A stretch of DNA of 64,000 bases from Candidatus Undinarchaeales archaeon (GCA_030753015.1 JASMDC010000004.1:64001-128000), one strand, 5' to 3'; counted from the first letter of the stretch, positions 28,216-46,291 are shown. The notes: generated by a model not told the origin, from the letters alone. Made by a program: numbers and translations.

Positions 28216-28231
28216 GATAATCACCTTCCTC

Positions 28232-29257
28232 CTAGGACAGGGGAATCGTCTGACCCCCAATTATCAGAACGTACTTCATAGCGAACACCCCGATGAGCAC
28301 GAGGAGCGACACCAGCTGGTAGGTGGCGACGGACTCTCCGCCGATGAAGACCAGAATGGCCAGAGGGATGAGCAAACCCACTACGACCTGTCCGCCGATG
28401 TACAGGGTGCTCATGCTCCCCTCGGTGAGGAGCTTGGCCGTGGCCTGGCCCTCGGCGCCCGAGTACTTCAGGACGATCATGTCCGAGAACACCAGGATCA
28501 GTTCGAAGGCAAGGAAGATCGCAAGAATCGTTCCCAGGAGCGAGATGACCTCGCCCTTCGTGGGACAGTAGTCGTCCTCAGACTCCGCCTTCACCACCTT
28601 CGCAGCGGGCTTCGGCTTGGCCTCCTCCTTGGACTCCTTGACTGTCTTCTCTTCCTTCTCCTCCTCTTCGGCCTCGTCATCCTCTTCTTCGTCAGCCTTC
28701 TTCGGGCAGCTGTGCGCGGGACCAATTATCCCGTGGACGAGGATGATGAGGGCGGCCGATGACGTGATCGCCGACACCAGGAACACCAGGGGAAGTGTGG
28801 GGCTATGCCAGAGCGGACGCTGTCGGATCACACCGAAGAGAACACCCTTGTACATCTCGATGGCAACGGCGGAGAGGAAGCCGAGCTTGCCGGCGAATTG
28901 GACGAGATCGTTCTTCCCGGTATTGAGGGCATAGAAGTAGAGCGCGCTCATCAGTGTGAAGAGAGATCCGATGTACACGTCCCAGGTCATGGGAGAGGTC
29001 ACGTTCACCCTGAAGAACAGGGTTATGAAGCGCTCAGGGCGCCCCATCTCTGCGATGATGAAGAGGGGACCGACCATGGCGAAGATCAGCGCCAGGAGGG
29101 CTGCCGTCTTCGCAATGGGCTTGAGCCGGCGTATACCGAACACCGGACCCAGGGTGGCGAGCATGAAGGAACCCGCCCCGAGCCCCAGAAGGGTCGAGTA
29201 GATCACGACGAGGTTCCCCCAGAAGAGCTCAGTGACGACCGTGTGGAAGATCGCCAT
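28232..29257 (-). CDS. NrfD/PsrC-type membrane anchor
   Basis: EMGRPERF, SPMTW, RPLWHSP..FLVSA; polytopic; contains a charged insert. Confidence 0.9.
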   Translation of the reverse strand: MAIFHTVVTELFWGNLVVIYSTLLGLGAGSFMLATLGPVFGIRRLKPIAKTAALLALIFAMVGPLFIIAEMGRPERFITLFFRVNVTSPMTWDVYIGSLFTLMSALYFYALNTGKNDLVQFAGKLGFLSAVAIEMYKGVLFGVIRQRPLWHSPTLPLVFLVSAITSSAALIILVHGIIGPAHSCPKKADEEEDDEAEEEEKEEKTVKESKEEAKPKPAAKVVKAESEDDYCPTKGEVISLLGTILAIFLAFELILVFSDMIVLKYSGAEGQATAKLLTEGSMSTLYIGGQVVVGLLIPLAILVFIGGESVATYQLVSLLVLIGVFAMKYVLIIGGQTIPLS

Positions 29258-29258
29258 G

Positions 29259-29954
29259 CTAGAAACCCCCTTCGTATGACTCTTCCTCAATTCTGCCCAT
29301 GATCGTTCCCTCCGGATAGATGTAGAACACGTGGGGATCGGTCCCGAGCTCGGGCTTCAGCACGATGGTCGGGTTCTGGCTGATGAGCTTGAAGGCCTCG
29401 CTATCGGGATCGGTTAGGTCGCCGAAGACGCGTGCCCTTCCCGTGCAGTTGTCTACACAGACGGGCTTCAGGCCCTTATCAACCCGGTGGGAGCAGAACG
29501 TGCACTTGTTCGCCACGCCATCGATCGGGTTGCGGAAGCGGGCGTCGTAGGGGCAGGCGACGATGCAGTAGCCGCACCCGACACAGATGTCGTAATCGAT
29601 GAGCACGATGCCGTCGTCCCTCTTGTGGGCTGCCTTCGTGGGGCAGACGGAGACGCATGGGGGGTCCTCACAGTGGTTGCACAGGCGGGGAAGGAACTGC
29701 CGTGAGACGTTCGGGTACTTGCCTTGCTCCACATCCTTCACCCATGCGCGCCATTTACCCTTGGGGACCTCGTACTCGCTCTTGCACGCTATTGTGCAGC
29801 TGTGGCACCCGGTGCATTTGCGCAGGTCGATGACCATGCCGTAACGCGGTCCGGGGTGTGTGGGATGTCCCGCCAGCGACGATATAGGCACCATCGCTGC
29901 CGCGGCGGCGGTTGCGGCGACCGCCTTTACTACGTTCCGTCTCTTTTCGTCCAA
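29259..29954 (-). CDS. 4x[4Fe-4S] electron-transfer subunit (TtrB/PsrB-like)
   Basis: KRRNVVK Tat-like leader; CTGCHSCTIAC, CNHCEDPPC, CVGCGYCIVACP, KCTFC. Confidence 0.92.
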   Translation of the reverse strand: MDEKRRNVVKAVAATAAAAAMVPISSLAGHPTHPGPRYGMVIDLRKCTGCHSCTIACKSEYEVPKGKWRAWVKDVEQGKYPNVSRQFLPRLCNHCEDPPCVSVCPTKAAHKRDDGIVLIDYDICVGCGYCIVACPYDARFRNPIDGVANKCTFCSHRVDKGLKPVCVDNCTGRARVFGDLTDPDSEAFKLISQNPTIVLKPELGTDPHVFYIYPEGTIMGRIEEESYEGGF

Positions 29955-31102: not shown

Positions 31103-33208
31103 TCACCCCTCCACGGCATACACGGTCCTCGTCCCGAACTCGGCTTTCTTTCCCTTGTTCCACTGACTCGTGGGCCTCAGGTACCCCACCACCCTCGAGA
31201 AGACCTCCGCTCTGCGCCCGCAGGTGGGACAAGTCTCATGCTCGCCTGCAAGATAGCCATGAGTGGGGCAGACGCTGAAAGTCGGGGTGAAGGTAATATA
31301 GGGTAGGCGGTAGTTCTCGCAGAGCCGTCGGACCAGGAGCTTGACCGTGTCGGGGCTCAGGGGCATTTCACCTGCGAAGACGTGCAGGACCGTCCCCCCG
31401 GTGTACCGTGTCTGGAACTCGTCCTGCAGATCGAACGCCTCGAACACGTCGTCGGTGAAGTTCACGGGCAGGTGTGTGGAGTTGGTATAGAACGGCTCGG
31501 CCCCTTGGCCGTGGTGTTCCTCGTTGGCGCATATGATGGCGGGATGCTTCTCCTTGTCGGCCTTGGCAAGCCTGTAGGACGCTCCCTCCGCAGGGGTGGC
31601 CTCGAGGTTGTAGTTGTTCCCCGTCTCCTCCTGGAACGTCACGAGCTTCTCCCTCATTGCGTCAAGGACCTTGAGCGTGAAGGCATGCCCGCGCTCGCTT
31701 GCGATGTTTTCTCCGAACAGGTTCAAGCAGGCCTCGTTCATCCCAATGAGACCGATCGTCGAGAAGTGGTTCTTCCAGTATTCACCGAACCTTTCTTTGA
31801 TATGGTCGAGGTAATGCTTCGTATATGGATAGAGGTCGTTCTCCGTGAACTTCTCCAGCGCCTTCCTCTTTATCTCAAGGCTCTCCCTGGCCAGGACCAT
31901 CAGTGCGTCAAGGCGCTCCATGAACCCGTTCTCGTCATCGGCGAGAAAGCCGATCCTCGGCATGTTCAACGTGACCACACCGATGGAGCCTGTCAGTGGA
32001 TTGGCGCCGAAGAGCGCGCCTCCCCTCTTCTCCAGGACCCGGTTGTCCAGTCGTAGCCGGCAGCACATCGAGCGGGCGTCCTCGGGACTCATATCGGAAT
32101 TGATGAAGTTGGAGAAGTAGGGCACCCCGTACTTTGCCGTCATCTCCCACAATCCCTCCAACCGGGGATTTTCCCAGTCGAAATCCTTGGTGATGTTGTA
32201 GGTCGGGATCGGGAAGGTGAACACCCTCCCCTTGGCGTCCCCTTCCATCATCACTTCGAAGAGCGCTCTGTTGAAGATGTCCATCTCCTCTTGGAACTCC
32301 CGATAGGGCTCACTCTGCATGACGCCGCCGATAATGACGCCTTGATCGGAATAGGCGCTCGGCACCGTCAGGTCCAGGGAAAGGTTCGTGAAAGGCGTCT
32401 GGAAACCCACTCTCGTGGGAACGTTCACGTTGAAGACGAACTCTTGGAGGCACTGCTTGACCTCTTTATAATTCAGCCCATCGTACCGTATGAAGGGGGC
32501 CAGGAGGGTGTCGAAATTGGATAGTGCCTGTGCACCAGCGGCCTCACCTTGCAGCGTGTAGAAGAAGTTGACCACCTGTCCGAGAGCACTGCGAAAATGT
32601 CTAGCCGGATCGCTCTCCACCTTCCCCGGAACACCCCTGAATCCTTCCATCAGCAGTTGATGGAGGTCCCAGCCGACGCAGTAGACGGAGATGGTATTGA
32701 GATCATGGATGTGAAGGTCGCCGTTCACATGGGCCGCTCTCACCTCCGGCGGGTAGATGCTGTTCAACCAGTAGACCTTGCTGACCTCCGAGGATATGTA
32801 ATTGTTCAATCCCTGCAATGAGAAGGCCATGTTGCTGTTCTCGTTGACCTTCCAATCGTTCAGCTCGAGATACTGGTCCACGAGGTCAACTCCTGCCTTC
32901 TCTGCGATCTCCCGCATCCGTGCATGTTGCTCTCGGTACAGGATGTACGCTTTGGCCGTCATGCGGTAGGGGGATGACAGCAGCACCTCCTCGACGACGT
33001 CCTGCACCTCTTCCACCGTCGGGACCTTGTGGGTGATCACCTGCTGGACAAGGCTCAGGACCTTCAGCGTAAGCCGCTTGGCGACCACCTCGTCGAACTC
33101 GCCCGTGGCCTCCCCGGCCCGCCGGATGGCGACCGTTATCTTTGCAGGATCGAACTTCCGGATCTTCCCGTCCCTCTTCCTAATTCTCTTGAATACATGG
33201 GGGGCCAT
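31103..33208 (-). CDS. nrdD: Class III anaerobic ribonucleoside-triphosphate reductase with ATP-cone
   Basis: IRKRDG ATP-cone, RSMCCRL, EATPAEG, YTGGT, glycyl-radical loop SRVVGYLRP. Confidence 0.96.
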   Translation of the reverse strand: MAPHVFKRIRKRDGKIRKFDPAKITVAIRRAGEATGEFDEVVAKRLTLKVLSLVQQVITHKVPTVEEVQDVVEEVLLSSPYRMTAKAYILYREQHARMREIAEKAGVDLVDQYLELNDWKVNENSNMAFSLQGLNNYISSEVSKVYWLNSIYPPEVRAAHVNGDLHIHDLNTISVYCVGWDLHQLLMEGFRGVPGKVESDPARHFRSALGQVVNFFYTLQGEAAGAQALSNFDTLLAPFIRYDGLNYKEVKQCLQEFVFNVNVPTRVGFQTPFTNLSLDLTVPSAYSDQGVIIGGVMQSEPYREFQEEMDIFNRALFEVMMEGDAKGRVFTFPIPTYNITKDFDWENPRLEGLWEMTAKYGVPYFSNFINSDMSPEDARSMCCRLRLDNRVLEKRGGALFGANPLTGSIGVVTLNMPRIGFLADDENGFMERLDALMVLARESLEIKRKALEKFTENDLYPYTKHYLDHIKERFGEYWKNHFSTIGLIGMNEACLNLFGENIASERGHAFTLKVLDAMREKLVTFQEETGNNYNLEATPAEGASYRLAKADKEKHPAIICANEEHHGQGAEPFYTNSTHLPVNFTDDVFEAFDLQDEFQTRYTGGTVLHVFAGEMPLSPDTVKLLVRRLCENYRLPYITFTPTFSVCPTHGYLAGEHETCPTCGRRAEVFSRVVGYLRPTSQWNKGKKAEFGTRTVYAVEG

Positions 33209-33882
33209 TACAATCTTCCTCTAATCCCAAGGAATCGGGGATGAGTTCCGCCCGGGGGTGGGGGTGGGTGGAAATGTCCTTCTTCGAAGGGGATAAAGAT
33301 ACAATAATTGATTCTTTATATTTCCATGCTTGGGGTTGTTGAGTTGCCATTCTTCACCTGCGGAAATCGTGTTTGATTGGGCTGCGGGTCATCGGTTTTC
33401 AGAGTCTTTATAAACGTCACGGCCGCGTGTTAAGGTATCCCTATTGATACTATTTATTTAATAGTTATCGGGATTCTGTCGATTTTACATTCCCTGCGGC
33501 CGAGGCCGGCTGATTCATGGAGATTTTGATGGAATGGACCGCTCCCACGTTCCCACTGGGTTTGCAGTGGCCCAGTTAATGTGATCTCCGAGAGCGGCGC
33601 CTTTAGAGTCATTACATTGGATTTGAGGTAGATGAAGGCGTCCCATGAATCACTCTCAATGAGCGTCGCCTCTTTATTCCACCAGATGAAGGCCCTTGAG
33701 CATCCCTCCGGACAATAGTAGGCGGTTCAACGTTATATACAAAAGGAGGGTGGCATGCCGGTACTCAGGTGGATCTCGTACCTTTCGGATTTGGTTCCCC
33801 CCCGGGAAACACGATATTCATCCTACCCATGAATTTGTGGGCTTTCTAGATGCTCCGCCACTAGGCTGCAACGGCCAGGGCG

Positions 33883-34202
33883 GAGCTGGTCGAGGTGGAA
33901 CCGAGGAACACGTCACGGATGTGCAGCCTGTGCGGGAACATCGTTCCCAGGGCGCGGATCAGCGCCCATCGGTGCCCGCATTGTGGGTCTGAGGAGCATT
34001 AGGACGTGAACGTCGCAGTGAACATTCTCGCAGAAACTAGGGCTGGACGAGCCCGAAGTCATGCCTGTGGAGATCCTGCCTCTACTCCCTCCCTGAACGC
34101 GGGGGCTAGCGGAGTCGACGAAACTGGAACTATACGCGGTTGTCCGCACGCCCGTGTGGTCACCGCTGGAAGCCCGTGGATTTATCCACGGGAGGATGTC
34201 AC
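33883..34202 (+). mobile_element. tnpB: Decayed IS200/IS605-family element: tnpB 3' fragment plus right end
   Basis: VEVEPRNTSRMCSLCG...CPHCGSEEH*DVNVAVNIL (zinc ribbon plus RuvC-III, TAG at 34000). Right-end hairpin CCCGTGGA-TTTA-TCCACGGG then AGGATGTCAC. Confidence 0.88.
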
Positions 34203-34309
34203 CTACAGTTTGACTTCAACGGCCCTTTGCGTCGGAATTCCTGCATCGTATCCTGGCGCTCATGGGATGCCAATGTCGGGAGGCCCGGTCGCCCATGCGA
34301 CTCCTACCA

Positions 34310-35557
34310 TCATTCCTGCTCGTGTTCGCACACGTCTCTGACGTCGTCCTGGGACAACGCCCGCCGCAGCTGCGCCGTGAGCACGGGTATCACCTCGTTC
34401 ACGTCCCCCACGATACCGAAGTCGGTGTGGTCGAAGATGGGGGCCTCCGGATCGTTGTTGATGGCCACGATGACCTCCGATGTCTGCATGCCCGCCATGT
34501 GCTGGACGGCACCGGAGATGCCGCAGGCGATGTAGAGCCGTGGGCTGACTGTCCTGCCGCTCAGTCCGACCTGATGTGCGTGATCGGTCCAACCCTCGTC
34601 CACCAGCGGCCGGCTCACGCCAACCACGCCCCCCAGGAGATCCGCAAGCTCCCGGAGCATCAACAGTCCCTTCCGGTCACCAAGACCGCGCCCGCCGGCG
34701 ACGACCACATCGGCGTCGACGATGCTCTCCTCCCGTACACCACAGACGATGTCAAGGACACGGATGCGCTCGGTGAGGCCGGACAGGTCGGACACCTGAC
34801 GCGCGATGTCGCCCTCGTGATGGGGGTTCGACAGCGGCCTGGGGAAGGTGCGCGGGCGCACGGTGGCCATCTGCGGCCGGCTGTCAGGGCAGACGATGGT
34901 GGCCATGACGTTGCCGCCGAAGGCGGGGCGCGTCTGGAGAAGGAGCCGTCGTCCCTCGTGCTCGCCAATTGCCAGACCGGTGCAGTCGGCCGTCAGTCCC
35001 GTTCGCAGTCGCACCGCCAGACGCGGGCCCAGGGATCTACCCAGGGAGGTGGCGCCGATCAGCAGGATGCTCGGACACACCTCGCCTACGAGCCCGGCCA
35101 TCGCCGCTGTGAGGGCTTCCACGCGGGGATTGGTGAGGCAAGGGTCGTCGAGCAGAAGGACGCGGTCGGCCCCCGACATCACCAGGGAGCTGGCCAGTCC
35201 TTCATCAACTGGTCCCGGCAGGGCGCACACCAGAGGCTCGGCCAGCTCGTCGGCCAGCTCCCGGCCCTTGCTCAGGAGCTCGAAGGCAACGTCCCGCACG
35301 GCATCACCATCGCGCTCGGCGAATACCATGACACCACATCCTTCGTCAGGTCCCCGGCGCGGGACGGCCTCGCGAAGGATGAGCGCCACCTCGGGACAGG
35401 CTTTGATGCACGCACCGCACAGGCGGCAGCTATCGTCGATGACGGGGTACGGATCCAGCAAGACCGAGCCGAAGGGGCAGACGTCGCGACACACGCCGCA
35501 TCGCGAGCACCGGTCGCGGTCCAGATCGATGGCGCCCTGATCCCTTTTGCCGCTCAT
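34310..35557 (-). CDS. etfA: Electron transfer flavoprotein alpha with N-terminal 2x[4Fe-4S] domain
   Basis: CSRCGVCRDVCP and CRLCGACIKACP; GLTADCT, QTRPAFGGN, QVGLSGRTV, GISGAVQH. Confidence 0.93.
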   Translation of the reverse strand: MSGKRDQGAIDLDRDRCSRCGVCRDVCPFGSVLLDPYPVIDDSCRLCGACIKACPEVALILREAVPRRGPDEGCGVMVFAERDGDAVRDVAFELLSKGRELADELAEPLVCALPGPVDEGLASSLVMSGADRVLLLDDPCLTNPRVEALTAAMAGLVGEVCPSILLIGATSLGRSLGPRLAVRLRTGLTADCTGLAIGEHEGRRLLLQTRPAFGGNVMATIVCPDSRPQMATVRPRTFPRPLSNPHHEGDIARQVSDLSGLTERIRVLDIVCGVREESIVDADVVVAGGRGLGDRKGLLMLRELADLLGGVVGVSRPLVDEGWTDHAHQVGLSGRTVSPRLYIACGISGAVQHMAGMQTSEVIVAINNDPEAPIFDHTDFGIVGDVNEVIPVLTAQLRRALSQDDVRDVCEHEQE

Positions 35558-36384
35558 AGGCCGCCATCCCCTACGATGCGCTGTTCGAGGAGCACCTGGA
35601 CGAGCCCGGAGACCGCGTCCTCGGGATCCCCGTCGAACACCCTGCCCCGTGCCCGCTTCGGCGGCGGGAACACACGTACTACGCGGGTCGGTGAGCCCGC
35701 GAGGCCCAGGCGCCGGATGTCCACGTCGAGGTCCTTGGCCGTCAGTACCTTGAAGGATCGCTCCCGGGCCGCCATCCATTGTTCGAGGTCGGGCATCCGC
35801 GGCTCATTGATCCCCTTGACGACGGTGACGAGGCAGGGGAGGTCCACCACGAGCGTCTCGACCCGAAGGTCCAGCTCCCGCTCCACGGTGAGCGCCCCTT
35901 CATCCGGCCCCGAGACGGACGTGACATAGCACACGTGGGGTATCGCCAGGAGCTCGGCCAGTCCCGGCCCCACCTGACCAGTGTCCCCGTCGGTCGTCTT
36001 GGTACCGCAGAGGATCAGGTCGAACCGGCCGCACGCCGCCACACCTCGGGCGAGCGTGTAGGATGTAGCGAGGGTGTCAGCGCCGGCGAAGGCCCGGTCG
36101 GAGAGGAGCACAGCGCGATCGCAGCCTAGGGCCAGCGCGTACCGTAGAGCGTGCTCTGCCTGGGGCGGGCCCATGCTCAGCGCGGTCACCTCAGCGCTGC
36201 ACCCCGTGGCCGCCAACCGCCCGCGTATGCGCACCGCTTCCTCGAGTGCATAGAGGTCGAAAGGGTTGAGCTGCGAGGCGACACCGGTGCGCTTCAGCGT
36301 CCCCGTCCCCTCGTCGGTCTCCACCGTCTCGGAGGCCGGCACCTGCTTGACACAGACAATGATGGAGAACGTATCGCCGGTCAC
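35554..36384 (-). CDS. etfB: Electron transfer flavoprotein beta
   Basis: IIVCVKQVP, NPFD..ALEEA, SDRAFAGADTLATSYTLA, DGDTGQVGP. Confidence 0.95.
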   Translation of the reverse strand: MTGDTFSIIVCVKQVPASETVETDEGTGTLKRTGVASQLNPFDLYALEEAVRIRGRLAATGCSAEVTALSMGPPQAEHALRYALALGCDRAVLLSDRAFAGADTLATSYTLARGVAACGRFDLILCGTKTTDGDTGQVGPGLAELLAIPHVCYVTSVSGPDEGALTVERELDLRVETLVVDLPCLVTVVKGINEPRMPDLEQWMAARERSFKVLTAKDLDVDIRRLGLAGSPTRVVRVFPPPKRARGRVFDGDPEDAVSGLVQVLLEQRIVGDGGL

Positions 36385-38858
36385 GCGAGCACCTCCACCC
36401 GAGGGACGACCTTGCGGTACACCGCCTGCGGCGGGCAAAGGCGTCCGTCCACCGTGAGGAGCTCGCGCAGCGCAATGCCGAACAGCCGCTCGTTCTCCTC
36501 GAGGTAGGGTCTGATGAGCTCCCAGTCGTCGGCGGAGAGCTCGGTGAAGACGCCTCCGTTGAGCTGGCCCTCATCCAGCTGACTACGAGGATCGCGGATG
36601 TAGAGCGCGCCACCCGACGCGAGCGAGAACAGGTTCCCGCCGGAGAAGGGGGTGTCAAGCTCGTGCAGGGTGCCGTCTGGGAGGGCCGCAACGCCGTTGA
36701 GCACGGCGAAGCCGCCACCGGCAAGCGGATCGCCCGCCATGAAGCTCTCAGCCAGGTAGTCGAGGCAGGTGCCGTTGATGACCACCCGCGGACCCCCCAC
36801 GGCGTTGATAAGGGGACGGCCCGCGGCGTTGCCCCGCACGTAGACCTCGCCGCCCTTGGCGCCGTAGAGGAAGGTCTGTCCCACGTCCCCGTGGACCACC
36901 AGGCGTCCCGCGGCGAGGATCTGGCCCAACTGGTCCTGGCCATCGGCGTGGACGCGGACCTCGCCGTTCATGAGACCTGAGCCCAGGTAGTCGCCGGGGC
37001 TGCCGTACACGTCGATGATCACCGGCTCCTCCTGCCCCAAGAGCCCGCACCCCACGAACCGCTGGCCGCACAGGTCGAAGGCGATGATGTGCCGCCATCC
37101 GGCACGATAGGCGTCCACGATGGACCGGGAGAGGGAGTCTGGGCCCTCCATGGGATATCCCCTGCCGCGCACCACGAGGGTGGCTCCGGAGCCGGGTGGC
37201 GAGGGAACAGGGCCCGTCCCCGCGTGGCGGTGAAGCCCGCCCACGTCAGGTCCGGGGAGCACCATGGTGCGGAGGAGGAGGTCGTTGATCGCGCTCTCGA
37301 TGAGCGTCCGACGCCATCCTGGTGAGACGTGCGGCGTGTCTACCCCGCGGTCCAGGAGCAGGGTGAGGAGCCCGAGCACGGTCCGGGGTCCAGGTCCTTC
37401 GGTGTCGTGGGCACTCGCGGCGAGCCCGCTCAGCAGGCCGCGCAGTCCGTCACTGGTCGCCCCTGCAAGCAGCGGGCGGAGCCACAAGAAGGCGCTTTCG
37501 ACCCCGTTGCGTGCGAGGTGGGCCATCACCGTGTCCGCTGACGGGATGGATCCGTTACGGGAGGAGGGCGTTGCTCGCGGACAGTCCACCTCACCACCGT
37601 ACTTGTCGCGGCATACGAGCAGGCCGTCCTCCAGGGAGAACGCGAAGGCGCCACCATCGGTGTGGCTCCCGCCCCGGGCGTTCCAGTACAGGTCCGCCCG
37701 CGTCGGCACACCTGATCGCTCGCCGTGGATGTTCTCCAGCACGGCGTCGATGGCCTGCTTCTCGCTGGCGACGAGCCCGATATCCAGCTCCCCCCGCTGG
37801 AGGGCGAACACCTGGGGGCGGAGCATGGAGGTATCGGTGATGCCCACCAGCTGCAGCAGGCCCCGGTCCGGCTTGGCGCGCCCGATGATGAAGAACCACG
37901 GGCCGTCGGGCGAGCCATGGATGTGGGTGCGCTGGATGGCTGCGTACACCTCCTGCTTCCCTTCGGGCAGCATGAGGAAGTCACGCTCGGTGGTGGGGGC
38001 GAGCGCCTCGATGATGTACTCTAGCGGGTAGCCATACACTCTGTCCAGCAGGTCGAAGAGCTGGACGGACACCTCGGTGTCCGTGAGGAACAGGGGCGTC
38101 ATCCCGTGCTGTCCCAGATAGTCGCGCACGCTCTGGTAGTTGGCGAAGTCACCGTTGTGCACTAGCGCCTCGTTGAGGCCAATGAAGGGGTGGGCGCCAC
38201 CGGGGTGCCAGACCCTGCCCTTGGTTGGGTAGCGCTGGTGGGCGATCCAGAGTCGGGCGTGAAGGTCGCCCAGGCGGTAGTTGGTGATTACCTGCTCGGC
38301 GAACCCGACTATCTTGAACACCAGAAGGTCCCGCCCGTGACAGAGCACGAAGGCCTGCGGGTCCGGGCGGTCAGTGTAGTAGGCGGTGTTGAGGGCGAAG
38401 GAGTTGGCGTGGACGAAGGCGTCCTCCTGCGAACGGCGGTCCAGGTCCGCAAACCCCCGCTCCGCGACGAACGCAGCCAGCTGCTCCTCCCGTGGTCGAC
38501 AGAAGTACCGCCACACCTCGGGAGGCGGCACCTCCAGCCCCGGGACGTCATGCCAGTCATCGATGGCAGGCACCCGTTCGGACCGGGCCACTGCAAACGG
38601 CCCGAGGACGTGCCGGTCCTCGACCTCCTCCCGGCACTCTGGATCCAGGTAGGCCACCTGGACGAGGTAGTGGGAGCGCAGAACCTCGGGCGACACTCCC
38701 AGCTGTGCCGGATCGAGGCCGGCGGCCACGATACCACCGCCCTTACCGTTACCGCGGTTGTTCATCTGTCGGGCGGCCGCCTCCAGGTGCCGTCCGGCCA
38801 CGGGCTCGGAGGCCAGGAACCCCACGACCCCGCATCCGCCCTCGGCCGGCTGTCTCAA
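36381..38858 (-). CDS. Glutamate synthase amidotransferase domain fused to GXGXG (GltB3-like) domain
   Basis: EGGCGVVG, NRGNGKGGG, HQRYPT, HNGDFANY, DTEV; C-terminal GDYLGSG...GQTFLYGAKGG. TTG start overlaps the upstream TGA after GAGGAGG. Confidence 0.88.
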   Translation of the reverse strand: MRQPAEGGCGVVGFLASEPVAGRHLEAAARQMNNRGNGKGGGIVAAGLDPAQLGVSPEVLRSHYLVQVAYLDPECREEVEDRHVLGPFAVARSERVPAIDDWHDVPGLEVPPPEVWRYFCRPREEQLAAFVAERGFADLDRRSQEDAFVHANSFALNTAYYTDRPDPQAFVLCHGRDLLVFKIVGFAEQVITNYRLGDLHARLWIAHQRYPTKGRVWHPGGAHPFIGLNEALVHNGDFANYQSVRDYLGQHGMTPLFLTDTEVSVQLFDLLDRVYGYPLEYIIEALAPTTERDFLMLPEGKQEVYAAIQRTHIHGSPDGPWFFIIGRAKPDRGLLQLVGITDTSMLRPQVFALQRGELDIGLVASEKQAIDAVLENIHGERSGVPTRADLYWNARGGSHTDGGAFAFSLEDGLLVCRDKYGGEVDCPRATPSSRNGSIPSADTVMAHLARNGVESAFLWLRPLLAGATSDGLRGLLSGLAASAHDTEGPGPRTVLGLLTLLLDRGVDTPHVSPGWRRTLIESAINDLLLRTMVLPGPDVGGLHRHAGTGPVPSPPGSGATLVVRGRGYPMEGPDSLSRSIVDAYRAGWRHIIAFDLCGQRFVGCGLLGQEEPVIIDVYGSPGDYLGSGLMNGEVRVHADGQDQLGQILAAGRLVVHGDVGQTFLYGAKGGEVYVRGNAAGRPLINAVGGPRVVINGTCLDYLAESFMAGDPLAGGGFAVLNGVAALPDGTLHELDTPFSGGNLFSLASGGALYIRDPRSQLDEGQLNGGVFTELSADDWELIRPYLEENERLFGIALRELLTVDGRLCPPQAVYRKVVPRVEVLA

Positions 38859-41416
38859 CCCATCACCTCCTCGCCCAGTTCCCGGCCCTCGGCCATGAGG
38901 AGGAGCTCGGGATGTCCCCGCAGGTCGGCGATGGAGCCCAGACCCAGACCGAGGCAGATGGCCCGCAGCTGTGCCTCCCAGGAGCGCCGGAGGTTGACGA
39001 TGCGCTGGCGACCCCACTGCGGATCTATGAGCGCCGCGCGCCGGGGATCAGTGGTGGTGATGCCCAGCGGGCACCCCCAGTCCTTCTCACAGCTCCCCAA
39101 GCGCTCGCAGCCCAGCGCCACGAGGTCCGCTGTCCCGACCATGGCCCCGTCGGCGCCCAGTGCCACAGCCTTGGCTATGTCGAACGCCGTCCGTACCCCG
39201 CCCGAGGCGATGAGCACCACCTCGTCGCGAACGCCCTCCGACTGCAGGAAGTCGTGTACCTTGGGGATGGCGTACTCCACGGGCATGGCGATGTTCTTCT
39301 TGCTCACCTCAGGGGCGGCGCCGGTGCCGCCGTAGGAGCCGTCGAGGTTGATGACGTTGCTCCCGGCGTGGTAGCTGCCCACCGCCACCATGTCGACGTC
39401 GGTGGGGGTGGACACCTTGGTGATGACCAGGGCGTCGGGATTGATGGACCTGATCCAGTCGATGTGCTTCTTGTGGTCCTCCACCGAGTACACCGAGTGG
39501 AAGGGGAAGGGGGAGAACAGGGAGATGCCGGGGACCGAGCCCCGGGCGATGGCCACGGCCTTGGACACCTTCTCGGCGAGGAGGTGGCCGCCCAGCCCGG
39601 GCTTGGCACCCTGGGCGTACTTGAACTCCACCACGGGCACGCTGGCGATGGTCTCCTCGCTCACCCCGAACAGCCCGGTCGCCACCTGGGTGATGACGTG
39701 ATCGCGGTAGGGGACCAGCTCCCGGGGAAATCCGCCCTCGCCCGTGGACACCAGGCTCCCGGTGTCCGCCGATGCCATGGCGCGGGCGAGCATGACGTTG
39801 CTGGAGATGGAGCCGAAAGACATCCCGCCGCCGTACAGGGGCATGCGCAGGGTGTACTGGGGACCGTTGCTCCGACGGTTGAGGGGGAGGGCGAGATCCA
39901 CCGACCGGTCGACGGTCCCGCGCTCCATGAGCGCATCAAGGTCCGTACCATCGGTCTCGAAGGGAAGGAAGAGGGCATCGAACCCGCCGCCAGAGCGACC
40001 GGCACGGTAGTCAATGGAGCTTGCCGGGGGATGGCCGGTCCGGGCCTGCTCGATGGTGGCGCGCAGGAGCTCAGGTGTCCAGCGCATATCGCCGATCAGG
40101 CCCTCGCGGAAGCCGCCGGCCCGGTCACGCAGGGGAGACCCGGCGGGGAGCCTCCCCGTCACCAGTTCCCTGAAGGCGGCCTCCTCGTGGGCGTAGAAGA
40201 TGACGCGGCCCGTCTCCCCGCGCAGCCGTCGCACCTCCCGCATCCCCATGGCGCCCAGCACCTCCAGCAGCTGGTTGCGCCAGGCGGCCATGAGGTTGCA
40301 GATATGGGCGGCACCCTCTGTGGGTTCGACATCGCCGTGCTCCACGGGACAGGGGTACCGGGTGTCGGCCCAGAGCATGCACCCGAGCGCCACCATGAGC
40401 GCGAGGTCCACGGTGACCGCGTCAGCGCCGCACGCCAGCGCCTTGGGCACGTGCTCGGCATCGGCGATCCCGCCGCTAAAAAGCACCGTCACGGCGTCTC
40501 GACTCTCTGCCTCCAGCAGCAGCCTGTGGAGCCGGTGAAGAGTGCGGCCGGCGAAGCGACCCGATCCGTCCCGGTCCCGGGCATGGTGGTCGGCGTTGAG
40601 GTGGATCCAGTCAAGCTCTACGCCACCAGCCACCAGGGCGGCGAGGGCGTCGGCAGCGCGGAGCGTGCACGGTGCCCGCACGCCCACTAAGGCGTCGGGA
40701 GCGAGGTCCCTGAGCACGCCAAGGAGATCGACGACCGTCTCCCTGTCCAGCTCGTCATTGTCCAGGCTGAGTTCGATGGCAGGGAGGCCCGCGGAAGCGA
40801 GCTCGTTCACACGCTCGACCTGGCTCGCCTCGATCCGGAGCACGACCGAGTGACGGAACGGTTCACGGTCCTCCCCCCACTGGGACACGGGCACCACCGC
40901 CAGTGTCCCGACATCCTGTGCTGCACGCAGCACGGACAGGTGGGCGCCCCGGCCCGAGGTCGGGATGTTGGGGAGCTCGAAGAGCACGGGGAGTGGAAGG
41001 TCGATGTGGGGCGGCATCTCGGTGGCTACCCTGCCGTCGGGATGGAACCGGAGGAAGGACGGCGCCCGTCCGAGCTGAACGGTCGTCGAGATGTACTCGC
41101 GCCCGTGGATGCCGTCCCGGGTGGGCCGCACGATCTCGGACATGTCGAACCAGATGCTGTCGAAACCAACACCCGCGAACCGACCCCCATACCCAGCCCC
41201 GGAGATGGGGATGCGGCCGGTGACGGCCTGGTAATGGGTGCGGCTGAGCACTTGGGATGTCCAGTGGGGATCACCACCCCTGCCGATGTCGAAGGCAAGG
41301 CGTCCGAACCGTACGTAATCATCGACCTTCTGGAGGTGGAAACGGGTGGGCAGCCCCGTCGGCTCCACTTGCCGGACCGCTATGGTATACCTGCCCGAGC
41401 CTGCTGGGTTGACCAT
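38855..41416 (-). CDS. Glutamate synthase FMN-binding protein with two tandem synthase-like barrels
   Basis: Second half: GGMSFGSIS, TGEGG, QVATGLFG, KYAQGAKPGLGGHL, SGGVR, CERLGSCEKDWGCP. First half is a divergent barrel (SGGIADAEHVPKALACGAD). Confidence 0.87.
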   Translation of the reverse strand: MVNPAGSGRYTIAVRQVEPTGLPTRFHLQKVDDYVRFGRLAFDIGRGGDPHWTSQVLSRTHYQAVTGRIPISGAGYGGRFAGVGFDSIWFDMSEIVRPTRDGIHGREYISTTVQLGRAPSFLRFHPDGRVATEMPPHIDLPLPVLFELPNIPTSGRGAHLSVLRAAQDVGTLAVVPVSQWGEDREPFRHSVVLRIEASQVERVNELASAGLPAIELSLDNDELDRETVVDLLGVLRDLAPDALVGVRAPCTLRAADALAALVAGGVELDWIHLNADHHARDRDGSGRFAGRTLHRLHRLLLEAESRDAVTVLFSGGIADAEHVPKALACGADAVTVDLALMVALGCMLWADTRYPCPVEHGDVEPTEGAAHICNLMAAWRNQLLEVLGAMGMREVRRLRGETGRVIFYAHEEAAFRELVTGRLPAGSPLRDRAGGFREGLIGDMRWTPELLRATIEQARTGHPPASSIDYRAGRSGGGFDALFLPFETDGTDLDALMERGTVDRSVDLALPLNRRSNGPQYTLRMPLYGGGMSFGSISSNVMLARAMASADTGSLVSTGEGGFPRELVPYRDHVITQVATGLFGVSEETIASVPVVEFKYAQGAKPGLGGHLLAEKVSKAVAIARGSVPGISLFSPFPFHSVYSVEDHKKHIDWIRSINPDALVITKVSTPTDVDMVAVGSYHAGSNVINLDGSYGGTGAAPEVSKKNIAMPVEYAIPKVHDFLQSEGVRDEVVLIASGGVRTAFDIAKAVALGADGAMVGTADLVALGCERLGSCEKDWGCPLGITTTDPRRAALIDPQWGRQRIVNLRRSWEAQLRAICLGLGLGSIADLRGHPELLLMAEGRELGEEVMG

Positions 41417-41569
41417 CTCGATGCCTTGCCGGGGTTGGCACTATGCCAATCTAATATACTGATATTGGACTCTAGATATATAACACTGAAAGAAAATAAT
41501 AAAATTGGAAATAAATTTATAGTAATTAACGAAAATAATTAACAAAGTAGAAAAATCGAGGGAAATACC

Positions 41570-42070
41570 GTGCCACAGATTACGAAACATTCCATCGATG
41601 CCACGGACCTGCGCATCCTGGACCTCCTCATGGACGATGCCCGACGCACCTACCGTCAACTTGCCGACGAGGTCGGTGTGTCACCGGTAACGGTGATGAA
41701 GCGCGTCCACAGCATGGAGCGCACGGGCGTCGTCCAGGGCTATACTGCGCGGCTGGACTACCAGGCACTGGGATACGACATCCTGGCCATCATCCAGCTG
41801 CGGATCTCTAAGGGGAAGCTCCTGGAGGTGGAGAAGCGCATCGCCACCCACAACGCCGTGTTCGCCGTGTACGACATCATCGGCCCCTTCGATGCACTGC
41901 TGCTGACGCGGTTCCGCACGACACCAGACATGGACCGGTTCCTTAAGACCATCCAGACCTACGATTTCGTGGAGCGGACCGAGACTATACTGGTGCTGAA
42001 CACGATCAAGGACGAGCCGCTGCGGGTAGGGGAGGACCGGTCTCCCCCGCTGCCGCCGCGCCTGCCGTAG
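41570..42070 (+). CDS. Lrp/AsnC family transcriptional regulator
   Basis: IDATDLRILDLLMDDARRTYRQLADEVGVS; divergent from the glutamate synthase operon. Confidence 0.93.
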   Translation: MPQITKHSIDATDLRILDLLMDDARRTYRQLADEVGVSPVTVMKRVHSMERTGVVQGYTARLDYQALGYDILAIIQLRISKGKLLEVEKRIATHNAVFAVYDIIGPFDALLLTRFRTTPDMDRFLKTIQTYDFVERTETILVLNTIKDEPLRVGEDRSPPLPPRLP

Positions 42071-42127: not shown

Positions 42128-43189
42128 TCACGGGGGCCTGGCCACGCGGTCCCCACTGAAGGCGACGATGTGCGCTGGGGCCGCCGTCACGCTGACCCTC
42201 GTTCCTCGCTCGACCAACAAGGTGGAGGGACGGCTGCTGTGCACCAGCTTCCCCGAGGCGAGGCTCAGGGTGTAGATGTTCTCCGAGCCCCTGAACTCCT
42301 GTCCTTCCACGACCGCTCCACCCTGGTCATCCACCGTGAACGTGATGTCATCGGGCCTGATCATGAGCTGAACGTCCGATCCCTCCGCCAATCCCGCTTT
42401 GTTCGGGAACACACCCAGTTCGGTCTCGATGCCCTCCTTTTCCACGAGGCCGTCGATGAAATCGGCCTGCCCCACGAAGTCTGCGACAAAGCGGGTGGAT
42501 GGGAAATGATAGATCTCCTCCGGGGTTCCGACCTGCTCGGTCCGCCCAGCGTTCAGCACGGCCACGCAGTCGGCCATGGAGAAGGCCTCCGCCTGGTCGT
42601 GCGTCACCAGGATCGCGGTGGAGTGTGCCTTTTTCAGGATGTTCAGCACCTCGTCCCGCATCTGGGCACGCATGTCGGCATCGAGGTTGCTGAGAGGTTC
42701 ATCCAGTAGTATGACCACCGGACAGGGGGCAAGCGCCCTGGCCAGGGCGACGCGTTGCTGCTGGCCGCCGGAGAGCTGGTGCGGATAGCGATCCCCCAAT
42801 CCCTCCAGCCCGACGAACTCCAGCATGTTATCAACGATCTTCTCACTCTTCTCCCTGTCGAACCCGGTCAGCCCATAGGCGATGTTGTCCTTCACCCTCA
42901 GGTGGGGGAACAGGGCGTAGCCCTGGAACACCATGCCGACATTCCGCCTATTGGGGGGGATGAACACCCCGCCGCCGGCGACGGGCTCACCGTCGATCAG
43001 TATCTCACCGCTGTCCGGTGTCTCCACTCCGGCGATCAGGCGGAGGGCCGTGGTCTTCCCGCATCCGCTGGGACCGAGGAAGGCAAATATCTCCCCCTTC
43101 TCCACCGTAAAGGACATGTCATCGATTGCCTTCACGTCGTCGTAGCTCTTGGCCACGTTCCTCAATTCGATTCTCGTCATAGATCCCAT
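42128..43189 (-). CDS. fbpC: Fe3+ ABC transporter ATP-binding protein (FbpC-like)
   Basis: GPSGCGKTT, VFQGYALFPH, LSGGQQQ, LLDEP. Confidence 0.88.
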   Translation of the reverse strand: MGSMTRIELRNVAKSYDDVKAIDDMSFTVEKGEIFAFLGPSGCGKTTALRLIAGVETPDSGEILIDGEPVAGGGVFIPPNRRNVGMVFQGYALFPHLRVKDNIAYGLTGFDREKSEKIVDNMLEFVGLEGLGDRYPHQLSGGQQQRVALARALAPCPVVILLDEPLSNLDADMRAQMRDEVLNILKKAHSTAILVTHDQAEAFSMADCVAVLNAGRTEQVGTPEEIYHFPSTRFVADFVGQADFIDGLVEKEGIETELGVFPNKAGLAEGSDVQLMIRPDDITFTVDDQGGAVVEGQEFRGSENIYTLSLASGKLVHSSRPSTLLVERGTRVSVTAAPAHIVAFSGDRVARPP

Positions 43190-43319
43190 CCCCCTCGTCC
43201 TCGGGACGTCACTTCAGGGCCCTCCTGCAAAGGTCCTTGCCGTAACCCGATCGTGCATCGAGCGAGTCCAGCAGGGCCGTATGGAGGCCCACGTCGTCAT
43301 CATAATCTCCATCACGGAT

Positions 43320-44927
43320 TCACCCGTTCTCATCGCTGCCCGGTTCCTGGGAGAGGATGATCATCATGGAGAGGGCCGAAACGCCCACCAATAGAAGTGC
43401 CGGGATCGCGGCACGTGCAAAGTAGACATCGTCCGTGGCTGACCACACGCGGGTCGCCAGGGTGCTGAAGCCCGTGGGCGCCAGGAGGAGCGTCGCCGGG
43501 AGCTCCTTCATGGTAGTGAGGAACACAAGGGACGCGCCGGTGAGCAGGCCTGGGGAGATAAGGGGCAGGGTAACCGTACGCATGGCACGCCAGGGCGTGG
43601 CACCCAGGCTCCGGGCCGCCTCCTCCAGCTGGGGGCTCAACTGCAGGAGGGATGCGCGGATCGTGCCCACAGCCTGGGGGATGAACAGCACCACATAGGC
43701 GAAGATGAGCATGGCCGTGGACTGGTAGAGGGGCATGGCGTACGTTACGCCGAAGAACACCAGGGAGAGGGCGACCACGATGCCCGGTAGGGCGAATCCG
43801 ATGTAGGTGCTCCGCTCCAGCAGGTTGCTGAGCAGTCCAGGGAACCGCACCGAGAGCGAGGCTACGGGAATTGCTGCGAGCATGGCAACGAGGGCCGTCA
43901 GTCCGGAGACGTAGATGGAGTTCGCGGCGAGATGCCATACGGGAGTGAGCTGCTCCCCGGCGGAGAGCCCGCGCACAAGCCAATAGGTGATCACGCTCAG
44001 GGGCATCACCAGCGACAATCCCACGATTGTTGTGCAGAAGAGCAGGGCAGGCCAACGCCAGCGGCCCAGCTCGACAGTACCGGGGGATCTCCTGGAGCCT
44101 GTGCCGCTGGTGTAGTACCTGCCCCCGCTGCGGGCCAGGTATTCCAAGATGAGGAGAATTGCCGCTAGCCCGACCAGGGAGATGGAAAGAACGGCCGCCA
44201 TGCTCCGATCGAAGCTGGACTGGTACTGGATGTAGATGACCCTGGTGAATGAGTCGAAGCGCATCAGGGAGGGCGTCCCGAAGTCTCTCAGGGTGTAGAG
44301 GGCCACCAACAGCCCACCCGCCGCGATGGAGGACTTGAGGAGGGGGAGGGTCACCCGAATGAAAGTCTGCCAGCGACCGTGCCCGAGGCTGCGCGAGGCC
44401 TCCTCGAGGGCCGGGTCGAGGGAAAGCAGGCTGGCACGCACGGTCAGGAGGACGTAGGGATAGCTGAAGAGGGTGAGCGACAGCAGCGCACCGGGCCATC
44501 CGTAGATGGACGGCAGCCGCTGTACACCGAGCAGCTCGAGCCATGTCTGGAGGATGCTCCCCTTGGGGCCGAGGGCGGCGATGATGGCGAAGCTCCCCAC
44601 GTAGCTGGGGATAACCAGGGGGAGTGCCGTGGCCACCGACCAGAACCGTCTTCCCGGGAGGTCCGTCCGCACCGTGAGGAAGGCAAGGGGCACGGCGATG
44701 AGGGTGGACGCAACGGTGACGGCGAGGGCAAGGAGTGCGCTGTTGACAAAGACCCGGATCGTGCGGGGATGGAGGAGGAGATCCCAGACGCCATCCCCTA
44801 CACCGGCCGTGCGGATGACCAGATAGGCGAGCGGGAACAGCATGGCAGAGGCGACGAGGATGGAGGCGAGGACCAGGGGAAGGGGGGGCCTGGGTGAGGG
44901 GATGAGGCGCGTCAGCAACGTCACCAT
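43320..44927 (-). CDS. fbpB: Fe3+ ABC transporter permease (FbpB-like)
   Basis: Two EEAxRSLG motifs, DFGTP, MKELPATLLL. Confidence 0.9.
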   Translation of the reverse strand: MVTLLTRLIPSPRPPLPLVLASILVASAMLFPLAYLVIRTAGVGDGVWDLLLHPRTIRVFVNSALLALAVTVASTLIAVPLAFLTVRTDLPGRRFWSVATALPLVIPSYVGSFAIIAALGPKGSILQTWLELLGVQRLPSIYGWPGALLSLTLFSYPYVLLTVRASLLSLDPALEEASRSLGHGRWQTFIRVTLPLLKSSIAAGGLLVALYTLRDFGTPSLMRFDSFTRVIYIQYQSSFDRSMAAVLSISLVGLAAILLILEYLARSGGRYYTSGTGSRRSPGTVELGRWRWPALLFCTTIVGLSLVMPLSVITYWLVRGLSAGEQLTPVWHLAANSIYVSGLTALVAMLAAIPVASLSVRFPGLLSNLLERSTYIGFALPGIVVALSLVFFGVTYAMPLYQSTAMLIFAYVVLFIPQAVGTIRASLLQLSPQLEEAARSLGATPWRAMRTVTLPLISPGLLTGASLVFLTTMKELPATLLLAPTGFSTLATRVWSATDDVYFARAAIPALLLVGVSALSMMIILSQEPGSDENG

Positions 44928-45193
44928 CGGATCAGTCTCCAGATGTTACAGTGCATGTTTTATCGTTTCCCCTCCTTCGACGTGACTGGCGCTCATCCCG
45001 CGGGACGTGCCCCCCGCCGGAGGGTCGGGGCTCTCGTGCTTCACCCCTTTCGTCCGTGCGTTGCCGGCCTCGGACTCCGCGTGCATCCTCCACAGGCACG
45101 ACCCGCCGCTCACATGGTCACCTCGGGAGGTCGGTTCCGGCAGCGGGCGGGAGTGGCGGCCCCCACCCACGCTTGCGGATCCCTGTCCTCCCG

Positions 45194-46225
45194 CTACAGG
45201 GCACCAACATCCTGAAGGAGCTTCAGCGTCCCCCTCAGATCGTCCAGGTCGCTCAGGTCGATGTCCGGCGAATTGATGTCCGAGAGGCGCTTCTGCGGTC
45301 CGAGCACGCTCGTTCCATTGACCAGCGGGTACTCGTAGGTCTGCGTGGCGTAGGAGGTCTGTGCTCCCTCGTTGAGCATGAACCCGATGAACCTCTCTGC
45401 AAGCGCTTGATCAGTTGAGGTGTCAACGATCCCCAGCCCCGCCACGTTGATCATGGAGCCGGCGTCGCCCGTGGTGTAGTGGTGCGCTACGGGGAACCCG
45501 GGGTCCTCCGCTTGGAAGCGGTGGAGGTAGTAGTTGTTCACGAAGCCTACGTGGATCTCTCCGCGGCCAAGGGCCGCGACGATGGGTGAGTTCTTGGGGT
45601 AGACCTGGGGCTCGTTGGCTATGATCCCTGTCAACCACTCCCGCGCCTTCTCCTCGCCCTCGAGCACCCTGAAGGCGGTGATGAATGACTGGAAAGAGCC
45701 GTTTGTCGGCGCCCAGCCGATCTTACCACCGCCCCATTTCTCCTCGACGAACCCCCAGATGGAGTCGGGAAGCTCCTCCTTGCTCACCAGCTTCATGTTG
45801 TAGTCGACCGTCCTCGCCCTGCCGGAAATGCCGATCCATTTCCCCGAGCGGGAGCGAAATCGAGGCTCCACACGCTGCAAGAGCGCGTCGGAGAGTGTGG
45901 ACAGGCGTCCCTCCTTGGAGAGTGCGCCGAGCGCCCCTGCGTCCTGAGCGAAGAAGAGGTCGGCAGGGCTGTTCTTTCCCTCCTCCAGGATCGTGGCGGT
46001 CAGCTCGGCCGTCTTGCCGTACCGAACCTCGGTCTTGATGCCTGTCTCCTCCTTGAACTTGTCGATCATAGGGCCGACAAGGCTCTCCCCGCGACCGGAA
46101 TAGATTGTCAGTGTCGGCGGTTCGGCCGAGACGCTCCCGCCGGCCGGCCCCTGTTTCAGACAACCTGCGGTCGCGACGCCCAGTGCCGCCACGCCCAGGT
46201 ATTTCACGAGTGTCCGCCTATTCAT
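45194..46225 (-). CDS. fbpA: Fe3+ ABC transporter substrate-binding lipoprotein (FbpA/FutA-like)
   Basis: MNRRTLVK Tat-like leader plus ATAGC lipobox; IYSGR, EGKNSPAD, VNNYY tandem Tyr ligands. Confidence 0.9.
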   Translation of the reverse strand: MNRRTLVKYLGVAALGVATAGCLKQGPAGGSVSAEPPTLTIYSGRGESLVGPMIDKFKEETGIKTEVRYGKTAELTATILEEGKNSPADLFFAQDAGALGALSKEGRLSTLSDALLQRVEPRFRSRSGKWIGISGRARTVDYNMKLVSKEELPDSIWGFVEEKWGGGKIGWAPTNGSFQSFITAFRVLEGEEKAREWLTGIIANEPQVYPKNSPIVAALGRGEIHVGFVNNYYLHRFQAEDPGFPVAHHYTTGDAGSMINVAGLGIVDTSTDQALAERFIGFMLNEGAQTSYATQTYEYPLVNGTSVLGPQKRLSDINSPDIDLSDLDDLRGTLKLLQDVGAL

Positions 46226-46291
46226 CACGGTGTAGCCGGGTTCAGGATTGTCGAGCGTTGGGGTGAACATGGTCATCACTTTTTTTGTAAA

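Follow-up and report, generated by a model that had tools for sequence, protein, structure and literature searches.

A candidate GltD-less glutamate synthase linked to a bifurcating-type electron-transfer flavoprotein in an Undinarchaeales archaeon

The glutamine synthetase-glutamate synthase (GS-GOGAT) cycle is the main route of ammonium assimilation. We analysed a 64,000-nucleotide stretch from Candidatus Undinarchaeales archaeon (GCA_030753015.1 JASMDC010000004.1:64001-128000), hereafter the window, in which four genes at positions 34,310-41,416 encode the parts of a glutamate synthase (GltS) together with an electron-transfer flavoprotein (ETF). Comparative evidence leads us to read this unit as encoding an ETF-dependent, GltD-less glutamate synthase running on NADH, with a probability of about 0.6.

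The electron inputs described for glutamate synthase, in the relevant parts of PMC8097209, are GltD (using NADPH, or NADH in fused forms) or free ferredoxin. The first type is represented by GltB/GltD of A. brasilense (1EA0, 2VDC, 6S6S) and B. subtilis (7MFM), and the second by the ferredoxin-dependent GltS (Fd-GltS) of Synechocystis (1LLW, 1OFD), a single polypeptide using free ferredoxin. A three-gene glutamate synthase of archaea is made of separate glutaminase, flavin mononucleotide (FMN) and GXGXG proteins. Known partners of bifurcating ETFs of known function are, according to the passages of PMC12042025 (2025) that deal with them, acyl-CoA dehydrogenases, ETF-QO and FixCX. Full-text literature searches, which did not extend to supplementary neighbourhood tables, returned no ETF-coupled or bifurcating glutamate synthase; the retrieved passages of PMC10134865, PMC7325909 and PMC9365771 deal with GltD homologues or separate complexes. 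This agrees with the initial annotation, made from the sequence of the window, which knew of no characterised enzyme of this kind. The four genes of the unit are the following:

38855-41416, minus strand: g1, 853 amino acids (aa), central-domain barrel plus FMN/3Fe-4S synthase barrel of glutamate synthase
36381-38858, minus strand: g2, 825 aa, TTG start, N-terminal nucleophile (Ntn) glutaminase with an 8-residue propeptide, helical linker and GXGXG beta-helix
35554-36384, minus strand: etfB, 276 aa, GTG start, small subunit of a bifurcating-type ETF
34310-35557, minus strand: etfA, 415 aa, with an N-terminal 2x[4Fe-4S] ferredoxin domain

Start and stop codons overlap by 4 nt at each junction, as the initial annotation had described: read directly in the DNA, the end of g1 and the start of g2 share TTGA, g2 and etfB share GTGA, and etfB and etfA share ATGA. 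Two of the three internal starts are non-ATG (TTG for g2, GTG for etfB), and purine-rich stretches precede the TTGA and GTGA junctions (GAGGAGG and GGAGGTG, respectively). Inspection of the flanking genes on both sides bore out the claimed lack of gltD, acyl-CoA dehydrogenase and fixC genes in or beside the four-gene unit, and no GltD (PF14691 plus PF07992) is encoded in it with the alpha subunit.

Examination of the two large proteins revealed a GltB-derived origin. g1 matches the Pfam family Glu_synthase (PF01645) at 327.5 bits (cut-off 20.4) in two stretches, and g2 matches GATase_6 (29.8 bits) and GXGXG (43.4 bits). Residues 524-843 of g1 align to the FMN/synthase domains of solved GltS at 154-172 bits, and the C-terminal barrel retains the AQGAKPG, SP.P.H..YS.ED and GGTGA.P stretches. 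K605, R625, E560 and Q602, which we take to be the 2-oxoglutarate-site residues of GltS, are kept with respect to the solved enzymes and are invariant among 43 aligned relatives. The same invariance is found for Cys770, Cys776 and Cys782, which align with the 3Fe-4S cysteines of 7MFM and 2VDC; their spacing (C-x5-C-x5-C) has one residue more in the second spacer than that of the solved enzymes (C-x5-C-x4-C). The AlphaFold model of g1 (predicted local distance difference test (pLDDT) 80, predicted template modelling score (pTM) 0.85) superposes over residues 48-845 on residues 452-1182 of the A. brasilense GltS alpha subunit (Z 29.6, root-mean-square deviation 3.7 Å, 620 residues aligned), a range that, going by this alignment, corresponds to the central domain plus the FMN domain. 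Single g1 barrels also resemble FMN-dependent 2-hydroxy-acid oxidases (Z about 23-24). The earlier description of g1 as a double FMN-barrel protein was overstated: two barrels there are, and the N-terminal one is by model alignment the counterpart of the GltS central domain, for which FMN is not borne out.

In g2, Cys9 aligns with Cys1 of GlmS, and the HQRY (Arg), HNGD (Asn-Gly) and TDTE (Asp) stretches are retained; these residues are presumably the nucleophile and the glutamine-binding residues, as in GlmS. The EGGCGV motif follows a leader of 8-35 aa in all 76 of the 76 g2 homologues. The top fold matches of the g2 model (pLDDT 85, pTM 0.90) are GltS alpha chains, along a span of about 1,560 columns in which the N-terminal glutaminase and the C-terminal beta-helix are covered and the middle is missing. 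Jointly, g1 and g2 are thus one complete GltS alpha subunit, split and permuted, and the initial annotation was right, by sequence and by fold, in calling them atypical GltB proteins. The one-polypeptide order glutaminase-central-FMN-beta-helix is not kept.

Compared with GltB/GltD, the pair has all four alpha-subunit domains, with catalytic and cluster residues kept. The differences are that the alpha subunit is carried by two permuted genes (central plus FMN; glutaminase plus beta-helix), that EtfBA is found in place of GltD, and that the cluster spacing and the residue at the Gln position of the GGQ stretch, discussed below, are altered. With Fd-GltS the locus shares an alpha-type core lacking an NAD(P)H subunit (g1 model, Z 26-29), but unlike Fd-GltS it has a dedicated, co-translated flavoprotein of the two-flavin adenine dinucleotide (FAD) type with a ferredoxin domain of its own. 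The archaeal three-gene type is likewise a split GltS without GltD; its proteins are only 26-39% identical to g2 and g1, have no central-domain barrel and do not fuse glutaminase and beta-helix. In ten Asgard loci of this type, a glutaminase of about 400 aa lies beside an FMN-domain gene, and the 1.5-kb flanks showed no ETF. These classical loci are L206-L214 and L216, and one genome (G163) also has the ETF-linked form.

ETFs are reportedly divided into groups, as in the work of Garcia Costas et al. from 2017, with group 2 comprising the two-FAD, bifurcating members. In Pfam, EtfB matches ETF at 144.9 bits, and EtfA matches Fer4 models, ETF (135.6 bits) and ETF_alpha (119.8 bits). The motifs that had been singled out in the initial annotation, DRAFAGADTLAT and DGDTGQVGP in EtfB and RPAFGGN in EtfA, are present in the translations. 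EtfB reaches 183-234 bits with the five solved bifurcating EtfB chains, LctB being highest, versus 86-89 bits with canonical chains (human, Paracoccus, Methylophilus), and EtfA scores 255-339 bits versus 124-139 bits. Bifurcating-type scores are therefore about twice the canonical ones, and the ETF does not group with the AMP-containing type. EtfA aligns over its full length to CarE, ferredoxin domain included, and this domain has eight invariant cysteines. R210 aligns with R146 of A. fermentans EtfA, and Y342 and H353 align with Y279 and H290; the relevant part of PMC12042025 gives the roles of R146, Y279 and H290, the Arg lying at N5 of the bifurcating flavin. The bit scores, R210 and the eight cysteines support the assignment of EtfBA, by sequence type, to the two-FAD bifurcating ETFs with a CarE-like ferredoxin domain, as first proposed.

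The likeness to CarCDE (6FAH), Ldh-EtfAB (7QH2; Ldh, lactate dehydrogenase), Bcd-EtfAB (5OL2) and EtfABCX (7KOE) thus lies in the EtfB/EtfA sequence type and in the Arg at the bifurcating flavin, and the likeness to CarE and LctC in the N-terminal ferredoxin domain. Unlike in these complexes, the apparent partner is an FMN/Fe-S amidotransferase and not an acyl-CoA dehydrogenase, a GlcD-type Ldh or FixCX/ETF-QO. No gene for a partner of these known classes is encoded alongside, the neighbours being g2, g1 and an intergenic region with a TnpB remnant.

The protein collection contains more than 4,000 relatives of the g1 protein (highest identity 58%). A genome scan for g1 gave 377 loci, of which the best 80 were examined; counts of loci out of 80 refer to these. 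The g2 gene lies directly after g1 in 76 of the 80, the remaining four ending within about 210 nt of g1, and g1 occurs as two genes in many loci. Linkage to an ETF could be judged in 53 loci, those in which g2 is complete and followed by at least 2 kb of sequence. Nine have etfB-etfA directly after g2, in the order g1-g2-etfB-etfA, and all nine are archaeal (seven Promethearchaeota, one Thorarchaeota and one other archaeon). The survey of gene order that had been suggested thus finds the arrangement kept in archaea only. A conserved protein of 133-156 aa is encoded after g2 in 13 loci.

In a tree of concatenated EtfB and EtfA (73 rows, quick search, LGG4; 17 of a separate set of 80 metagenome loci, found with the EtfA alignment, dropped for truncated genes), the ETF of the window and the nine linked ETFs form one clade with a Shimodaira-Hasegawa-like approximate likelihood ratio (SH-aLRT) of 98, and of 97 in a later tree. 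Its nearest neighbours are Ldh-type ETFs; this is the phylogenetic placement that the initial annotation had called for. A first tree of g2 (62 rows, 15 incomplete loci dropped) grouped the long-branched window sequence with three bacterial rows, and the two origins that this free tree suggested were rejected as a long-branch or search artefact since a constrained tree scored better. With the ten ETF-linked g2 rows constrained to one clade, the tree is 33 log-likelihood units better than the free quick tree (approximately unbiased test, p-AU 0.87), and the data are therefore compatible with g2 and the ETF having been inherited together from a single event. Together, these results support an ETF linkage that is conserved and co-inherited with g2 in Asgard archaea.

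Full-length g2 is present in 16 of a sample of 201 Asgard genomes in which an ETF was sought within 1.5 kb of g2: four have ferredoxin-domain (Fd) EtfBA downstream and two have an ETF without ferredoxin domain (Fd-less), joined to the pair by overlaps. In this second ETF, EtfB scores 160-198 bits against bifurcating and 78-88 against canonical chains, and EtfA 243-318 against 104-148. It falls in a separate part of the tree, among acyl-CoA-dehydrogenase-type ETFs, and so bifurcating-type ETFs have been recruited to this core at least twice. The two loci (L218:6088-13427 and L217:2967-9404, both minus strand) have two separate barrel genes, g2 and Fd-less EtfBA. In L218, a ferredoxin-like insert lies at the N-terminus of the first barrel protein, and etfA is followed by a gene resembling ornithine cyclodeaminase.

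The surroundings of the family point toward nitrogen assimilation. The pair adjoins glnA in 11 of the 80 loci, from Asgard archaea, Acidobacteriota, a Woesearchaeote and Desulfobaccales, and a gene for glutamine-dependent NAD synthase follows etfA in Asgard loci. The genome of the window has one glnA, and g1 is its sole strong PF01645 match (297 bits), the next being a generic FMN barrel of 423 aa (86 bits). The double-barrel gene is also the sole strong PF01645 match in each of four Asgard genomes that have the ETF-linked form. Adjacency to glutamine synthetase and a single PF01645 candidate per genome thus support a real GS-GOGAT role. Two GltD-family genes of the window's genome lie elsewhere, in NfnAB-like and PreTA-like pairs (beside NfnA-like and PreA-like genes), and a second ETF, devoid of ferredoxin domain, adjoins an acyl-CoA dehydrogenase and a thiolase. 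N-methylglutamate synthase (MgsABC) consists of three separate GltB-derived subunits that act on methylamine, and its genes usually have gmaS and mgd close by. No NCBIfam model at E of 0.01 or below indicated MgsABC, though MgsABC's own models were not searched by name, and neither gmaS nor mgd was found in the neighbourhood examined.

A further comparison concerns the cysteines at the N-terminus of the central-domain barrel, for which 83 sources were examined (nine without the anchor, L217 among them, and two incomplete). An 8-Cys form (two CxxCxxCxxxC) occurs in L218 (Asgard, Fd-less ETF), in six other loci and in all 17 loci that have a FAD-oxidase/Fe-S protein gene upstream; a form with about four Cys is found in most partner-less loci; and a 0-2-Cys form occurs in the seven Asgard loci with Fd-EtfA, in the window and in L007, L009, L010, L011, L013 and L020. 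EtfA thus carries the 2x[4Fe-4S] module where the barrel is without one (seven Asgard loci and the window), and the barrel carries it where EtfA is without one (L218). GltD carries two [4Fe-4S] clusters according to the relevant part of PMC8097209, and the analogy hints that the clusters of the module link ETF and synthase in a similar manner. The swap agrees at least as well with a plain wire carrying electrons into the synthase as with a branch that reduces ferredoxin. The loop of the N-barrel that matches the 3Fe-4S loop has two Cys in the window (C-x9-C; g1 343-357, about 40346-40390), four in L036 (C-x2-C-x2-C-x4-C; L036:10001-11200) and three in L218 (L218:12063-13427), and a further cluster may be present in the central domain of forms that carry the ferredoxin insert. 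Reported GltS potentials, in the parts of PMC8097209 devoted to them, are about -240 mV for FMN and about -280 mV for the 3Fe-4S cluster, the latter rising to -190 mV with 2-oxoglutarate. A complex prediction with the g1 synthase barrel (447-848), EtfB (6-266) and the EtfA core (76-402), the ferredoxin domain lying outside the model, gave no answer on their contact (score 0.00, mark 0.32).

The 17 loci with an upstream FAD-oxidase/Fe-S gene (L036-L049, L057, L067, L069, L072, L074 and L080, from Aminicenantes-type and 'Eubacteriales' metagenome-assembled genomes) encode, ahead of the split GltS, a protein of 600 aa with FAD_binding_4, FAD-oxidase_C and 4Fe-4S dicluster domains (e.g. L036:7936-9741). 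This protein may be a 2-hydroxy-acid-driven electron input to glutamate synthase.

From the domain content, the conserved residues, the type of ETF and the conserved and repeated gene linkage, we infer substrates, physical contact, electron path and NADH as donor as follows. g1 and g2 would assemble into the equivalent of one GltS alpha subunit. Removal of the 8-residue propeptide of g2 would expose the Cys, and the glutaminase domain would hydrolyse glutamine. The ammonia would pass to the synthase barrel of g1, in which 2-oxoglutarate would be aminated and reduced by FMN, itself fed single electrons through the 3-Cys iron-sulfur cluster. Co-translated EtfBA would replace GltD: the FAD of the bifurcating site would accept hydride from NADH, and electrons would reach the synthase cluster via the electron-transfer FAD (ET-FAD) and/or the two [4Fe-4S] clusters of the EtfA N-terminus. 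Of the original proposal that an ETF takes the place of GltD in this synthase, the lack of GltD in the unit and the conserved, repeated ETF linkage held up, and the replacement itself is a step that we consider probable.

Several observations weigh against this reading. His611 of g1 sits where solved GltS has the Gln of GGQ and is invariant in the 43 aligned relatives, and the NCBIfam GltB equivalog NF008730 (cut-off 1047) gives only 194.7 bits for g1 and 13.8 bits for g2. No ETF follows g2 in 44 of the 53 judgeable loci, nor is one seen within 1.5 kb in 10 of the 16 Asgard genomes with g2. Both an orthologous Fd-EtfA and a Cys-rich insert are missing from five bacterial genomes whose g1 is fused in the same way; the core therefore runs on other donors, and the ETF might be dispensable. 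None of the best 80 metagenomic relatives of Fd-EtfA adjoins GltB-like genes, 36 being found with an acyl-CoA dehydrogenase and four with an Ldh-type FAD oxidase. The genome of the window holds four genes of the glutamate dehydrogenase (GDH) family, and a same-genus genome (99% complete) has no g1 homologue; for these two reasons the unit is not essential to the lineage. Lastly, with the ET-FAD potentials assumed here, transfer from ET-FAD to GltS would be uphill until substrate reduction pulls it, because the GltS cofactors are of fairly low potential.

Within the ETF-dependent reading, a complex that does not bifurcate is a serious possibility that falls short of being probable. Bifurcation, which the initial annotation had suggested and in which two ferredoxins would also be reduced via the semiquinone of the bifurcating FAD and the [4Fe-4S] clusters of EtfA, appears slightly less likely still, though a good deal speaks for it. 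The ETF has all the bifurcating sequence marks, including the Arg at the bifurcating flavin, its nearest neighbours are Ldh-type ETFs, with LctB of the confurcating Ldh-EtfAB as the top score of EtfB, and two separate lineages of bifurcating-type ETFs and no canonical one have been recruited. The 2-oxoglutarate plus NH3/glutamate couple lies, with the help of glutamine hydrolysis, above pyruvate/lactate in potential, and the energetics would therefore permit it. However, the sequence type does not guarantee bifurcation, acryloyl-CoA reductase-ETF being a non-bifurcating example. The [4Fe-4S] module, which moves between EtfA and barrel, looks like a link to the partner and not like an exit toward free ferredoxin, and the three or four Cys that insert-bearing forms also have in the N-barrel loop suggest an internal wire.

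The core could also catalyse a different amidotransferase/FMN reaction, on another 2-oxo acid or an amine, the ETF then supplying or removing electrons. The family-wide His611 in place of the GltS Gln, the scores of g1 and g2 far under the NCBIfam GltB cut-off and the invariant residues that the N-terminal barrel has of its own (H297, R306, K325, C346 and C356) would fit such a reaction. This is nevertheless unlikely: the glutamine-site residues and the Lys, Arg, Glu and Gln that we assign to the 2-oxoglutarate site are retained, glnA adjoins the pair in four unrelated lineages, and no other GOGAT candidate was found in the five genomes examined.

Quite unlikely, in our view, is a ferredoxin-dependent split glutamate synthase whose ETF serves another dehydrogenase or is loosely coupled. 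Most of the family is without ETF, and this majority may, by analogy, work like Fd-GltS; the five close bacterial relatives with fused g1 also lack any orthologous ETF. In the window, on the other hand, 4-nt overlaps join g2, etfB and etfA (likewise in L218), the ETF clade is co-inherited with g2, ETF recruitment happened twice, and the genome already has its separate ETF beside acyl-CoA dehydrogenase and thiolase. A complex running backwards like Ldh-EtfAB, with glutamate oxidation and reduced ferredoxin together reducing NAD+ (confurcation), is very improbable, for although the ETF is nearest to Ldh-type ETFs and the synthase half-reaction is reversible in vitro, a glutaminase whose nucleophile and propeptide are strictly conserved would then serve no purpose, glnA and a glutamine-dependent nadE are among the neighbouring genes, and four GDH-family genes are available for glutamate oxidation.

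If the ETF-dependent synthase is real, the ETF would be a further (fourth) class of electron input to glutamate synthase and the range of partners of bifurcating-type ETFs would be widened. EtfAB-glutamate synthase can be put forward, tentatively, as a new bifurcating class in which the exergonic reductive amination of 2-oxoglutarate drives the reduction of ferredoxin by NADH. A widespread marine archaeon and Asgard archaea would in that case regain low-potential electrons from assimilating nitrogen. The family has interchangeable input modules (an Fd-domain ETF, an ETF plus a ferredoxin insert, a FAD-oxidase/Fe-S protein, or none) and amounts to a natural experiment on how an Fe-S flavoenzyme is wired from modules. 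The unit bears on the balance of NADH, ferredoxin and nitrogen in abundant uncultured archaea, because no other GOGAT candidate was found in the Asgard genomes examined and the copy of the window recurs in 12 marine studies.

In these 12 studies, the 7.1-kb stretch was found near-identically in marine or seawater metagenomes. Metatranscriptome contigs at least 99% identical, from two libraries belonging to two studies, cover stretches of g1, g2 and etfA; they indicate presence in RNA libraries and are no proof of transcription, and gaps in their cover carry no meaning. None of them bridges a gene junction by 31 letters on both sides, and co-transcription is thus unsupported. The genome of the window is archaeal, as indicated by its S8e gene, and also holds genes resembling FwdABCD, the NfnAB-like pair and an ETF cluster of the beta-oxidation type. 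The organism has the look of a marine archaeon with an anaerobic or facultative metabolism, though it recurs in seawater metagenomes.

The whole unit was likely acquired horizontally in this genome. Its GC content is 0.64-0.70; that of the genome is 0.603 and that of the sequence immediately downstream 0.53-0.57. A TnpB remnant borders the operon. The DNA shared with the same-genus genome amounts to one flanking gene (Mrp/NUBPL) and two short repeats on its other contigs. Downstream of etfA, about 1.1 kb holds no credible open reading frame except the TnpB zinc-finger remnant, and nrdD follows. The remnant is a degraded TnpB (IS200/IS605-type) gene at 33696-34150 on the plus strand, in which a 35-aa open reading frame matches Cas12f1-like_TNB at 30.8 bits and adjacent frames look like the C-terminal part of TnpB. 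The repeats (33201-33461 and 33850-34205) match other contigs of the same-genus genome at 77-79%. An Rfam scan of 33000-34400 gave a single, sub-threshold match, to HgcC (34120-34214; 20 bits, gathering score 50), and the highest-depth RNA-library contig of run X19 lies at 33329-33701.

On the other side of the operon, the divergent Lrp/AsnC regulator announced in the initial annotation is present and matches the Pfam models HTH_AsnC-type (52.7 bits) and AsnC_trans_reg (45.6 bits):

41417-41569, no strand: divergent intergenic region, 153 nt between the starts of g1 and the regulator, a putative (presumed) promoter/operator region
41570-42070, plus strand: Lrp/AsnC-family regulator, divergent from the operon, with HTH_AsnC-type and AsnC_trans_reg domains

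The top NCBIfam match of this protein is haloarchaeal Lrp (105 bits, under its cut-off). A divergent Lrp/AsnC gene lies upstream of the pair in 16 of the 80 loci, and the protein would regulate the operon. GC content falls to 0.53 in the 41400-41999 bin, as against 0.64-0.70 across the operon. Beyond the regulator lie the genes of an ABC transporter (42128-46279, minus strand; GC 0.61-0.66), which code for a TOBE-domain ATPase, a double permease of 535 aa and a solute-binding protein of the SBP_bac_8/1/11/6 type. Nearby in the window, both on the minus strand, are genes for an anaerobic ribonucleotide reductase (31103-33208) and for a molybdopterin oxidoreductase with an NrfD-type membrane subunit (25348-29290).

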